From an uncultured bacterium (GTDB lineage Bacteria > Bacteroidota > Bacteroidia > Chitinophagales > CAIODY01), in the NCBI GenBank assembly GCA_903857255.1, contig CAIODY010000086.1:7312-71311 (forward strand): DNA of 64,000 bases. The letters run 5' to 3'. The translations under genes and the position numbers were made by a program. The notes beneath the pieces are model-generated. The model saw only the letters and a list, made by a program, of their open reading frames with translations, searched no databases and was not told the DNA's origin. Positions 2,866 through 6,223 of the stretch are shown in pieces. Each line of letters starts with the position of its first letter. Position 1 is the stretch's first letter.

Positions 2866-4512
2866 GTGCCAAAAGATACATCCATAAAGTCAGTACTGAT
2901 CATAGGTTCAGGTCCAATTATTATTGGTCAGGCTTGTGAGTTTGATTACAGCGGTTCTCAGGCTGCCCGTTCGCTTCGAGAAGAAGGAATTGAAGTGGTG
3001 CTGATTAACAGCAATCCTGCAACGATTATGACCGACCCTATTGTTGCCGACAAAGTTTATTTGTTGCCATTGAATACGGAAAGCATTGAGCAGATTTTGA
3101 AAGAAAACAAAATTGATGCAGTGTTGCCAACCATGGGTGGACAAACAGCTTTGAATCTTTGCAAAGAAGCCGATGAAATTGGCTTATGGGAACAATACAA
3201 TGTAAAACTAATTGGCGTAGATATTAAAGCAATTGACAAAGCTGAAGACCGTGAAAAATTTCGCTTGTGGATGATTGAAATGGGTATTCCGGTTTGTCCT
3301 GCACATATTGCCAACTCATTTTTAGAAGGAAAAGAATTTGCACAACAAATAGGATTTCCGTTGGTACTTCGCCCATCGTTCACATTAGGTGGAACAGGCG
3401 GCGGCATAGTTTTCAAAAAAGAAGACTTGGATGAAGCCTTGAACCGAGCTTTGACAGCCAGCCCGATGCATGAAGTGCTGGTGGAAAAAGCGGTATTAGG
3501 TTGGAAAGAATATGAATTGGAATTGTTGAGAGACAACAACAACAACGTGGCAATCATTTGTACGGTTGAAAATTTCGACCCGATGGGTGTACACACGGGC
3601 GATAGCATTACTGTTGCGCCAGCTATGACTTTGAGCGATACAGCATTTCAGTTGATGCGTAATACTGCCATCAGCATGATGCGAAACTTAGGAAATTTTG
3701 CAGGCGGATGTAATGTGCAGTTTGCCATGAATCCTGAAACAGAAGAAATTATTGTGGTGGAAATAAATCCCAGAGTGAGCCGTTCATCAGCATTGGCAAG
3801 TAAAGCAACGGGTTATCCGATTGCTAAAATTGCTGCAAAACTGGCGATTGGATATAATCTGGATGAATTAAAAAATCAAATCACGAAAACAACTTCAGCA
3901 TTTTTTGAACCTGCATTAGATTATGTGATTGTGAAAATTCCACGTTGGAATTTCGATAAATTTAAAGGCGCAAATGATACACTTGGTTTCCAAATGAAAT
4001 CAGTTGGTGAAGTAATGGCAATTGGCAGAAGCTTCCCAGAAGCGATTCAGAAAGCTTGTCAGAGTTTGGAAAATGATGCGATTGGTTTGGGTTACTATGG
4101 TAAATCGTTGATGAAAAGTGAAGAGATTTTAGAAAGCATCAAAACACCGAAATGGGACAGAATATTCCGCATCAAAGATGCCTTGATGGCTGGGGCTACG
4201 GTTTCAACCATTCATAAATCAACCATGATTGATAAATGGTTTTTGTACCAGATTCAAAGCATTGTTGATTTGGAAAAACACTTAATGAAGTTTGATAAGC
4301 TTTCAGAAATTTCAAAAGAAGAAATGACGAAAGCCAAGCAAATGGGCTTTTCTGATTTACAAATTGCAAAATTTGTTGGCAACAAATGCACCGAAGATGA
4401 AGTGTATGAATATCGTAAATCATTAGGCATTACCCGAATTTTTAAAATTGTTGATACCTGTGCAGCAGAGTTTGAGAGTAAGACGAATTATTTTTATAGC
4501 ACGTTTGGGTAG
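2866..4512 (+). CDS. carB: carbamoyl-phosphate synthase large subunit, N-terminal half (carboxyphosphate ATP-grasp domain plus oligomerisation domain)
   Basis: 548 aa. The GTG start gives MPKDTSIKSVLIIGSGPIIIGQACEFDYSG, colinear with the CarB N-terminus. The ORF ends ...VDTCAAEFESKTNYFYSTFG-TAG, exactly at the linker before the second ATP-grasp half. Confidence 0.92.
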   Translation: MPKDTSIKSVLIIGSGPIIIGQACEFDYSGSQAARSLREEGIEVVLINSNPATIMTDPIVADKVYLLPLNTESIEQILKENKIDAVLPTMGGQTALNLCKEADEIGLWEQYNVKLIGVDIKAIDKAEDREKFRLWMIEMGIPVCPAHIANSFLEGKEFAQQIGFPLVLRPSFTLGGTGGGIVFKKEDLDEALNRALTASPMHEVLVEKAVLGWKEYELELLRDNNNNVAIICTVENFDPMGVHTGDSITVAPAMTLSDTAFQLMRNTAISMMRNLGNFAGGCNVQFAMNPETEEIIVVEINPRVSRSSALASKATGYPIAKIAAKLAIGYNLDELKNQITKTTSAFFEPALDYVIVKIPRWNFDKFKGANDTLGFQMKSVGEVMAIGRSFPEAIQKACQSLENDAIGLGYYGKSLMKSEEILESIKTPKWDRIFRIKDALMAGATVSTIHKSTMIDKWFLYQIQSIVDLEKHLMKFDKLSEISKEEMTKAKQMGFSDLQIAKFVGNKCTEDEVYEYRKSLGITRIFKIVDTCAAEFESKTNYFYSTFG

Positions 4513-4518
4513 ATACAA

Positions 4519-4577
4519 GCCCACAAAGACACAAAGAGCACAAAGTTTTTTCTTCGTAAACTTCGTGTCTTAGTGGA
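4519..4577. repeat. left flank hairpin of the GxxExxY cassette
   Basis: The 5' arm CCACAAAGACACAAAG(AGCACAAAG) pairs with the 3' arm CTTCGTGTCTTAGTGG at 14 of 16 positions. GCCCACAAAG (4519-4528) is the perfect inverted repeat of CTTTGTGGGC at 5020-5029. Confidence 0.8.
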
Positions 4578-4593
4578 ATAAAAAATAAAACCA

Positions 4594-4974
4594 ATGACAG
4601 AAAACGAAATTGCAAAAGAAGTGGTTGATTGTTGTTTCAAAGTTCATTCAACTTTAGGCGCAGGTTTGTTTGAAAGTGTTTATGAAGCGGCATTGGCTTT
4701 TGAATTTGATAAAAGAGGAATTGAATATACACGACAAGAACCTATTGAAGTTTATTATGAAGATGAGTTGTTGGATGTAGGTTTTAGAGCAGATTTTATT
4801 ATTGAAGATAAATTCATCATCGAATTAAAATCAGTTGAGACATTGGAGAAAGTTCATCACAAACAAATCTTGACTTATTTAAAGGTTACGGGAATGAAAT
4901 TAGGTCTGTTAGTGAACTTTAATGTTGATTTAATCAAAGATGGCATACACAGAAAAATAAACGGACAATTATAA
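4594..4974 (+). CDS. GxxExxY family protein (PD-(D/E)XK nuclease-like fold), inserted between the two carB halves
   Basis: 126 aa. Carries the signature G-LF-E-SV-Y (GAGLFESVYEAAL) and a D...E.K-like core (RADFIIEDKFIIELK), which I recognise as the GxxExxY family. Confidence 0.8.
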   Translation: MTENEIAKEVVDCCFKVHSTLGAGLFESVYEAALAFEFDKRGIEYTRQEPIEVYYEDELLDVGFRADFIIEDKFIIELKSVETLEKVHHKQILTYLKVTGMKLGLLVNFNVDLIKDGIHRKINGQL

Positions 4975-4978
4975 AATA

Positions 4979-5029
4979 TCCCACAAAGCCACAAAGAAAA
5001 AACTTCGTGAACTTAGTGCCTTTGTGGGC
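4979..5029. repeat. right flank hairpin of the GxxExxY cassette
   Basis: CCCACAAAGCCACAAAG (4980-4996) pairs with CTTAGTGCCTTTGTGGG (5012-5028) at 15 of 17 positions, with an extra CTTCGTG unit in the loop. It is a direct-repeat relative of the left flank. Confidence 0.8.
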
Positions 5030-6223
5030 GACAAAAAAATAATTATGTACAACGAATCAATCAGAAGCGACAAGAAAAAATACATCGTATTAGGCAGTGG
5101 TCCAAACCGCATTGGGCAAGGTATTGAGTTTGATTATTGCTGCACACATGGTTTGCAGGCCATTAAAGAATGTGGTCATGAAGCCATCATGATTAACTGC
5201 AATCCTGAAACAGTAAGTACCGATTTCGACATGGCGGATAAATTGTATTTCGAGCCTGTGTTCTGGGAGCATTTATGGGAAATTATTGAGCATGAAAAAC
5301 CTGAAGGTGTGATTGTTCAATTAGGCGGACAAACCGCTTTGAAACTGGCTAAACGCTTAACTGAAAAAGGAATTAAAATCATAGGTACTTCTTTCGATAG
5401 CATGGATATTGCCGAAGACCGTGGTCGATTCAGCGATTTGCTGAAAGAAATGAACATTCCTTATCCTGAATATGGCACAGCCCACACTGCTGATGAAGCA
5501 ATGGCTGTGGCAAATAAAATTGGTTACCCAGTGTTGGTTCGTCCGAGTTATGTATTGGGTGGGCAGCGTATGCGAATTGTGATAAATGATGATGAACTAG
5601 AAAATGGGGTGTTGAGCTTATTGAAACACTTACCTGATAATACCATTTTGATTGACCATTTCTTAGACCGTTGTCAGGAAGCTGAAATAGATGGCATTTG
5701 CGATGGAGAGAATTTTCATGTGATGGGGATTATGGAACATATTGAGCCAGCAGGCATTCATAGTGGCGATAGTAATGCTGTGTTACCTCCATTTAATTTA
5801 TCGCCTTTGGTGATTGTTGAAATGAAAGATTATGCCAAAAAAATTGCGATGAAATTGCAGATTAAAGGCTTGATAAATATTCAGTTTGCTATTAAAGATG
5901 GAAAAGTATTTGTGATTGAAGCCAATCCACGTGCCAGCCGTACAACGCCTTTCATTGCTAAAGCTTACCAGATTCCTTATTTGAATATTGCAACTAAAGT
6001 AATGTTGGGTGAAAAGAAAGTTACCGACTTTACTTACGAACCAAAATTGCAAGGTTATGCCATTAAAGAACCAGTTTTCTCATTCGATAAATTTCCTGGT
6101 GTGAATAAAGAATTAGGTCCTGAAATGAAATCAACGGGTGAAGCCATTCGCTTTATTAAAGACCTACGTGACCCTTATTTCCGTACGTTGTATAAAGAAA
6201 GAAGCATGCATTTGAGTAAGTAA
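5024..6223 (+). CDS. carB: carbamoyl-phosphate synthase large subunit, C-terminal half (carbamoyl-phosphate ATP-grasp domain); start is GTG 5024 or ATG 5045
   Basis: 399 aa. Contains [26 protein letters not shown] and [10 protein letters not shown], colinear with the second CarB half. It is in a different frame from the N half, and no MGS-like allosteric domain follows. Confidence 0.9.
   Translation: [399 protein letters not shown]

Follow-up and report, generated by a model that had tools for sequence, protein, structure and literature searches.

Clade-wide fission of carB at the CPS.A/CPS.B boundary is associated with a GxxExxY gene cassette bordered by heptamer palindromes

In the 64,000-nt stretch of contig CAIODY010000086.1 analysed here (the window; positions are counted from its first letter), carB, the gene of an essential multidomain synthetase, is divided in two by a 535-nt insert. 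The insert carries a small gene of the GxxExxY family between two palindromes built of heptamers, and the cut falls at the boundary between the CPS.A and CPS.B parts of the enzyme. Diverged relatives share the identical cut, and both halves of carB are under strong purifying selection. We consider it likely that a cassette of this kind entered the CPS.A/CPS.B linker in the ancestor of the clade, giving a three-gene operon with a two-chain CarB. The locus comprises the following features.

2802–2809, forward strand: candidate Bacteroidota-type −7 promoter motif TATCTTTG upstream of the N-terminal half of carB (carB-N); consensus match only.
2866–4512, forward strand: N-terminal half of carB (CPS.A) with pre-ATP-grasp, ATP-grasp and oligomerisation domains, 548 aa, TAG at 4510–4512; from profiles.
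4510–5044, forward strand: insert between codon 548 and the restart codon, 535 nt, not a multiple of 3; from the sequence.
4520–4576, no strand: left palindromic heptamer element; from an inverted-repeat search.
4594–4974, forward strand: GxxExxY/PDDEXK_3 gene, 126 aa; from profiles, an AlphaFold2 model and the ratio of nonsynonymous to synonymous divergence (dN/dS).
4980–5029, no strand: right palindromic heptamer element, 88% complementary; from an inverted-repeat search.
4519–5029, no strand: long-range inverted repeat bracketing the predicted nuclease gene, 4519–4557 with 4991–5029, 39 nt, 85% complementary.
5030–5044, forward strand: A-rich leader GACAAAAAAATAATT preceding the restart codon; from the sequence.
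5045–6223, forward strand: C-terminal half of carB (CPS.B, carB-C), second pre-ATP-grasp and ATP-grasp unit, 392 aa; from profiles and dN/dS (0.014–0.022).

The N-terminal half is an open reading frame (ORF) that ends in ...VDTCAAEFESKTNYFYSTFG and is followed directly by the TAG. An earlier reading of this stretch, made from the sequence only (the sequence-only reading), had given the same 548 residues and the same stop, and the ORF map confirms them. This half carries the Pfam domains CPSase_L_D1, D2 and D3 and matches positions 1–541 of the NCBIfam CarB equivalog PRK05294 (NF003671/TIGR01369) with 845 bits against a cut-off of 599. The C-terminal half takes up the same profile at positions 544–925 with 558 bits; being half a protein only, it does not reach the cut-off set for the whole protein. 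Across the two halves, the two ATP-grasp synthetase units and the intervening oligomerisation domain that identify CarB are all present, and the Pfam and NCBIfam boundaries place the cut where it had been proposed, in the linker that joins the oligomerisation domain to the second ATP-grasp unit.

The C-terminal half starts at ATG 5045, one of two starts that had been put forward; this ATG, in the context ATG-TAC-AAC, is shared by all split relatives. The other candidate, GTG 5024, is not supported, as it belongs to the right hairpin arm, and in one of the split relatives (L009; loci fetched for comparison carry L numbers) it is not in frame. With the start at 5045 the two halves sum to 940 aa (548 + 392), which corrects an earlier estimate of about 947 aa and is the exact length of the closest intact CarB proteins (P0001 and others, 88% identity, Chitinophagales/Ferruginibacter-like). 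Alignment to intact CarB, which the sequence-only reading had proposed as a check, defines the cut: intact ...YSTFD-TENESKPSD corresponds to split ...YSTFG-stop ... MYNESIRSD, with zero codons lost or duplicated. The C-terminal half stops at profile position 925 and lacks the C-terminal MGS-like allosteric domain (positions ~926–1058). The intact relatives P0001–P0120 (940–956 aa) are likewise without this domain, and its absence is therefore a lineage trait and not a lesion.

The split architecture recurs in independent assemblies from ENA (L001, L007), Logan (L002), JGI (contig L008) and NCBI (metagenome-assembled genome (MAG) L009). Clustering of sequences from NCBI, JGI, ENA and Logan yielded 23 distinct N-terminal halves, and the cluster of C-terminal halves has 14. 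The identical cut, NYFYSTFG-stop/MYNESIRS, is found in the window, L008, L009, L065, L209, L211 and L215. Between the window and the L008/L009 alleles, the N-terminal half has a dN/dS of 0.024–0.031 at a synonymous divergence (dS) of 0.39–0.49, and the C-terminal half has 0.015 at a dS of 0.48. Across the split lineages, at dS 0.17–0.49, the values are 0.012–0.03 for the N-terminal and 0.014–0.022 for the C-terminal half; over all 940 codons they are 0.013–0.023 among four lineages. Both halves are intact in at least six diverged lineages and carry no further lesions. The insert measures 535 nt in the window (remainder 1 on division by 3) and 513 nt in L009 (remainder 0), and the two halves are thus read independently. 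These comparisons indicate that the fission predates the whole clade. The suggestion that a cassette had landed in, or been retained at, a permissive site is supported in part: the enzyme is kept as two ORFs under strong purifying selection, but a recent landing in this genome does not fit, since the fission is old and clade-wide.

The content of the gap between the halves differs among the split lineages.

Variant a, in the window/L001/L007, L008 and L009, and in MEY4877520–22 as judged by consecutive accession numbers: an intact GxxExxY gene of 'type A' with arms.
Variant b, in L065: an arm, a UPF0175 gene, a second arm, a GxxExxY gene of 'type B' and a hairpin.
Variant c, in L209/L210: an arm, a UPF0175/DUF3368 toxin–antitoxin pair and a 370-aa ORF.
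Variant d, in L211–L214 and L216: an arm of another subtype (TCACGCCAAG-ACGCAAAG) and a 352-aa DUF1573-like ORF, with no right arm.
Variant e, in L215: a spacer of 365 nt, the decayed remains of a type-B GxxExxY gene.

The type B gene is 61% identical to type A. A heptamer arm lies 6–13 nt past the stop of the N-terminal half in every variant, and the gap holds a GxxExxY gene, intact or as a remnant, in the window, L008, L009, L065 and the deepest branch, L215. The latter is the most diverged member of the clade, with saturated dS to the others and a dN of 0.045; for comparison, dN to the intact outgroup is ~0.09. Its remnant has an internal deletion and stops, a C-terminal part that still scores 76 bits, a degenerate left arm and an intact right arm. 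Because the nuclease gene has decayed or been replaced in some lineages, we infer that CarB function is independent of the nuclease. The carB gap now acts as a replaceable junction. The toxin–antitoxin pair lies at 7716–8431 of L209, and in L065 a UPF0175 gene alone (111–326), 93% identical to that of L209, is found between two heptamer arms upstream of the GxxExxY gene. The arms may thus bound cargo besides GxxExxY. The 352-aa ORF (L211, 7715–8773) and the 370-aa ORF (L209, 8481–9593) are homologous to each other, begin with LYQVxFGQA and have faint DUF1573 and Ig-like matches.

The heptamer palindromes flanking the GxxExxY gene had been overlooked by the sequence-only reading. The two elements at the carB locus are each ~50 nt long, are composed of CACAAAG and CTTnGTG heptamers, and are direct repeats of one another. 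In the left element, the arm at 4520–4545 reads CCCACAAAG-ACACAAAG-AGCACAAAG and the arm at 4552–4576 reads CTTCGTA-AACTTCGTG-TCTTAGTGG; in the right element, the corresponding arms are CCCACAAAG-CCACAAAG (4980–4996) and CTTAGTG-CCTTTGTGGG(C) (5012–5029). The double-heptamer motif CACAAAGNNCACAAAG has a chance expectation of 0.05 per window. The outer arms of both palindromes pair across the nuclease ORF as the 39-nt inverted repeat listed above, and this long-range stem is present in both the minimum-free-energy and the centroid fold of the RNA. We conjecture from these folds that it could be a processing site separating three messages. Folded as DNA, the left hairpin (4516–4580) has z-scores of −2.5 on the top and −4.8 on the bottom strand, and the right hairpin (4976–5033) of −3.5 and −5.7. 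The bottom-strand hairpins are more stable because the A·C mismatches of the top strand turn into G·T pairs there. Elsewhere in the window, neither further GxxExxY copies nor further heptamer hairpins were found.

The 126-aa ORF between the halves had been described as an independent gene with the GxxExxY signature (GLFESVY) and a nuclease-like core, and this is upheld by profile matches to TIGR04256 (GxxExxY; E 1e-42, 144.8 bits, cut-off 35) and PF13366 (PDDEXK_3; E 3e-41, 140.8 bits, cut-off 22) and by a dN/dS of 0.02–0.03. The gene is under purifying selection at the carB locus, where two comparisons gave dN/dS values of 0.030 (dS 0.67) and 0.021 (dS 0.56). In the alignment, the motif appears as G24-LF-E27-SV-Y30, and Asp67, Glu77 and Lys79 are invariant across 36 homologues. 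An AlphaFold2 model was obtained with a predicted local distance difference test (pLDDT) score of 94, and its nuclease matches in Foldseek are all PD-(D/E)XK folds, although weak (TM-scores 0.35–0.5): Cas4 SSO0001, the lambda exonuclease family, Bax1, the catalytic domain of I-Bth0305I, and EndA/archaeal splicing endonucleases. The product is therefore predicted to be a minimal PD-(D/E)XK nuclease with Asp67, Glu77 and Lys79.

The GxxExxY family is very large (19,155 clusters at 50% identity, E ≤ 1e-3) and has been listed as 'function unknown, multiple transfers' (PMC3424549). Sequence searches of the PDB with the protein and the family profile returned no relative, the PADLOC defence models gave no match at E ≤ 1, and PHROGs gave only a weak Cas4-like match. 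None of 50,697 phage records contains a homologue, and 72,556 plasmids gave eight, these being distant and mostly on megaplasmids. This near-absence from phages and plasmids indicates that the cassette is not typical mobile-element cargo. Several homologues of 250–295 aa (P0241, P0244, P0249, P0252–P0254 and others) contain two GxxExxY-like stretches. Each is either a tandem fusion or the result of a gene call running across two cassettes.

GxxExxY genes are almost always bracketed by such arms. We surveyed 80 genomic loci of homologues with 56–98% identity, 77 of them usable for arms, from Bacteroidota, Ignavibacteria, Acidobacteriota, Cyanobacteria, Verrucomicrobiota, Planctomycetota, Nitrospirota, Chloroflexota and other phyla. 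Heptamer units were defined as C[G/A]CNAAG upstream and CTTNG[C/T]G downstream; at least two units are present in the 150-nt flanks at 76 of the 77 loci, at a density ~25 times background. In the simple form, the 5′ arm TCACGCAAAG-GCGCAAAG-ACGCAAAG stops 0–10 nt upstream of the ATG and its inverse complement starts 0–10 nt past the stop codon. Some loci, that of the window included, have a complete hairpin on each flank. Duplex energies of the arms are −30 to −70 kcal/mol, compared with −15 to −30 for shuffled sequences, and the terminal bases of the arms covary among subfamilies (TCACG/CGTGA, TCGCG/CGCGA, TCTCG/CGAGA and CCCAC/GTGGG). Within the unit C-R-C-N-A-A-G, the fourth base is the only position informative for pairing, the others being fixed by the search pattern, and it is free: ~40% of unit pairs (L009–L168) are not Watson–Crick paired there.

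A metagenome scan for the arm motif of the window returned 80 loci, of which 77 have no GxxExxY gene nearby and are mostly solo hairpins of 60–70 bp. The loops between adjacent arms are bimodal, at most 40 nt in 43 of 51 and 420–500 nt in three, and all three of the long loops contain a GxxExxY ORF or pseudogene. A co-oriented ORF of at least 100 aa ends no more than 60 nt from the left arm, usually ~9 nt away, at 41 of 69 evaluable cassettes; one begins just past the right arm at the same number (41/69), and 28/69 have co-oriented ORFs on both sides. Opposite-strand neighbours are rare. The genes on either side are complete and different from each other in five contexts examined with Pfam (NuoF and NuoG, PreT-like and PreA-like proteins, LarC and NadE, TrpRS and an RlmI-like methyltransferase, and aldehyde dehydrogenase and glutathione peroxidase), and in the remaining contexts as judged by eye. 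Such tight, co-oriented and complete neighbours show that the normal habitat of the cassette is the junction of co-transcribed genes. Across the family, cassettes are the copies of a dispersed palindromic repeat that carry an ORF; they are found mainly at operon junctions of the chromosome and point the same way as the genes beside them. A search of the 80 genome loci for other gene families tightly bracketed by arms gave four weak candidates, with only UPF0175 at the carB gap convincing. No rRNA motif was found in the ~160 fetched loci.

For the carB locus, these results are consistent with the following course of events. In the ancestor of an uncultured Chitinophagales-like Bacteroidota clade, a compact cassette would have entered the variable CPS.A/CPS.B linker of carB and turned one gene into an operon of three: carB-N (548 aa), the nuclease gene and carB-C (392 aa). 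A stop now comes directly after codon 548 and, behind an A-rich leader, a new ATG stands at codon 549. The motif at 2802–2809 suggests a single transcript spanning both halves and the cassette, started at the carB promoter: TAnnTTTG occurs there and nowhere else on either strand from 2802 to 6537, by consensus match only, and no internal copy was found between the start of the N-terminal half and 6537. A scan for sigma-70 promoters and terminators gave results at or below shuffle expectation, sigma-70 being the wrong promoter model for Bacteroidota. Translation would end after Gly548; the nuclease gene and carB-C would each have a start of their own at an A-rich leader. Bacteroidota generally start translation at A-rich, unstructured leaders and not by Shine–Dalgarno pairing. 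A-rich leaders also precede ATG TAC AAC in L008, L009, L209, L211, L215 and L065. The two chains would then assemble non-covalently with CarA, as do CPS.A and CPS.B of Aquifex aeolicus.

The cassette probably caused the fission. That it was the original insert is favoured by the arm that follows the stop in every gap variant and by the GxxExxY remnant in the deepest branch. The strongest alternative, which we regard as unlikely but take seriously, is that fission came first, for example through a small indel that made a stop and a restart, and that the new junction was later colonised by hairpin and GxxExxY elements and by other genes. Several observations speak for this order of events or against the preferred explanation. 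Cassettes elsewhere sit between complete genes and not inside them, carB being the sole intragenic case met in ~20 distinct contexts; given so strong a preference for existing junctions, the same picture would result from colonisation of a gene that was already split. Gap content also turns over quickly. The two closest to each other in carB, the window and variant d (dS 0.17), nevertheless differ wholly in gap content and arm subtype, so that the gap is rapidly replaceable and its present content is weak evidence of the ancestral state. Neither the carB junctions nor solo hairpins show a target-site duplication or an insertion footprint, and the intact carB genes of relatives are too diverged (dS saturated) for an exact empty-site comparison. 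Furthermore, no GxxExxY member with a characterised activity or substrate was found in the literature or the PDB.

On the other side, no bare split, with a short gap and no arm, is present among the top 120 homologues of the N-terminal half or in the 23-member cluster. Relatives split at this point without any cassette, which the sequence-only reading had named as telling against it, turn up only in part: the same cut without a GxxExxY ORF exists, yet a heptamer arm is always present. A stop and a restart without loss of a codon (940 = 548 + 392) are also most simply explained by a single insertion that brings both stops and an A-rich leader. Entry of the cassette into the linker remains our preferred explanation.

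Repair at the RNA level is very improbable. Here the arm stem would direct excision of the insert, by the PD-(D/E)XK nuclease or RNase III, followed by ligation to give full-length CarB, in the manner of archaeal bulge-helix-bulge splicing. The long-range stem does form in both predicted folds, archaeal splicing endonucleases are among the weak structural neighbours of the protein, and precise removal of 4510–5044 would restore the frame. However, the stem lies off the codon boundaries, and excision of 4519–5029 would leave an in-frame TAG. All lineages keep a stop behind codon 548 and an ATG at 549, and the split is still maintained (dN/dS ~0.02) in L215, where the nuclease has decayed, and in L211 and L209, where it has been replaced and there is no right arm. 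No match to an intron or ribozyme family turned up. Of other candidates for an element removed after transcription or translation, a self-splicing intron was rejected on an Rfam scan of 4300–5300, which at E ≤ 1 gave only chance snoRNA and miRNA matches, and an intein, with an in-frame Hint domain, on the stops that the insert has in the carB frame and on an insert length whose remainder on division by 3 varies between lineages.

We give as little credence to the view that this carB copy is an inactivated gene in decay, its function being supplied by another carB or by salvage. A second carB could lie outside the window, and none was found within it. Decay is at odds with two intact halves in at least six diverged lineages at dN/dS 0.013–0.03 and dS up to saturation, and with the lack of further lesions. 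Least probable of all, to the point of being negligible, is an assembly chimera joining two carB fragments via a repeat: one Logan contig (L002) does end inside the cassette, but assemblies of different samples (ENA, Logan, JGI and NCBI MAG), diverged alleles included, show the identical architecture. The break in L002 (Logan ERR4194717) is 105 nt into the GxxExxY gene, at locus position 5833, and is consistent with a sample whose strains differ in the gap.

Beyond carB, the survey raises the possibility of an undescribed, pan-bacterial class of minimal element, which we put forward tentatively and with more doubt than confidence. It would comprise GxxExxY genes and heptamer palindromes in two forms, ORF-bearing elements of ~0.5 kb and far commoner solo hairpins of 60–70 bp. 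The 125-aa nuclease would act on the hairpin, the elements would colonise co-transcribed junctions and could fission an essential gene, and the arms would exchange the content of the gap (type A and type B genes, toxin–antitoxin genes and other ORFs). By analogy with insertion sequences (IS) and miniature inverted-repeat transposable elements (MITE), or with repetitive extragenic palindromes (REP) and their associated transposases (RAYT), the nuclease may act on the hairpin of its own element, as DNA or RNA; this we hold with less confidence than the origin of the split.

The likeness to REP/RAYT and IS/MITE systems lies in the many palindrome copies that have no ORF and the minority that flank a small nuclease gene in inverted orientation. 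The enzyme differs, as here it is a 125-aa PD-(D/E)XK protein and the sole ORF, not an HUH/Y1 or DDE transposase. Unlike REPs, which are tagged by GTAG/CGTC, the arms are tandem heptamers, and the genes are multi-copy and inside operons. Integron cassettes also share features with the present ones, namely promoter-less, co-oriented small genes, imperfect palindromes, variable cargo that includes toxin–antitoxin genes, and a hairpin that is more stable on the bottom strand. However, there is no integrase, attI or array context here, and the arms are heptamers and not attC. Exchange of cargo at the heptamer arms is a conjecture. Rickettsia palindromic elements are inserted in protein-coding genes and translated in frame. 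They resemble the carB element in being palindromic repeats tolerated at a permissive site of an essential coding region, whereas the carB element terminates translation and splits the gene.

Intervening sequences (IVS) of bacterial 23S rRNA, for example in Coxiella and Leptospira, as described in PMC4990558, are inserts of ~0.4–0.7 kb with an inverted-repeat stem and often a small ORF of a multi-copy family. On that description they too interrupt an essential gene whose product works in two pieces. The host gene here is protein-coding, and separate translation is proposed in place of the RNase III cutting of a structural RNA. The published ORF family of the IVS, S23p with a four-helix bundle, is a different one, and none of the 160 loci here is in rRNA.

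CarB is naturally split in Methanocaldococcus jannaschii too. The sequence-only reading had likened the cut to the boundary at which carB is two genes in Aquifex aeolicus, and the likeness is borne out by PMC6022934 (citing Ahuja 2001), according to which separate CPS.A and CPS.B genes there yield an active complex with the glutaminase subunit. In the Aquifex-type split synthetase, as here, the cut comes after the first synthetase unit and the oligomerisation domain and leaves two ORFs, both of them under selection in the present clade. The halves here differ in being adjacent, co-oriented and separated by a cassette, and the fission is young enough for intact orthologues of the summed length to exist at 88% identity.

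Split CarB is thus already known, as are, in kind, pairs of palindromic repeats and nucleases. New are the clade-wide, cassette-associated fission of carB at the CPS.A/CPS.B boundary, the reuse of the gap by different genes, and the heptamer-palindrome context of GxxExxY. No description of the genomic context or heptamer-palindrome architecture of GxxExxY genes was found in the searchable literature, nor was a paper on the heptamer repeat sequences themselves. The locus provides a natural, datable fission of an essential multidomain enzyme for which intact orthologues of the summed length still exist. As its descendants kept both halves for long under strong selection and the gap has since been reused, the mechanism and the cost of the fission are testable. 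The survey also supplies a genomic context for a very large family of unknown function, and the heptamer hairpins, as DNA or RNA, are concrete candidate substrates for GxxExxY biochemistry.

Further observations were made at cassettes away from carB. In a Flaviaesturariibacter MAG, a GxxExxY cassette lies between nuoF and nuoG of the NADH dehydrogenase operon (L044, 2932–3410). Another junction, between a gene ending in ..AAAIL(K/E)YL and a gene starting with MADISSDFLGIKSPNPFWLA, holds a cassette in many Chitinophagaceae MAGs (L021, L022, L026, L030, L034, L037, L038, L042, L052 and L072); the flanking genes, a PreT-like oxidoreductase and a PreA-like dehydrogenase, are confirmed by Pfam in L022 only, the other loci being matched by flank sequence. 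At this junction, the cassette has either persisted for long or been inserted repeatedly. Frameshifted or truncated GxxExxY pseudogenes remain between arms in L118 (243–673), L048 (3001–3168), L074 (3001–3045) and L215 (6648–7012), which indicates that decay in place is common. Tandem arrays of heptamer hairpins or half-hairpins adjoin the GxxExxY genes of L012, L061, L069, L073, L078 and L087.

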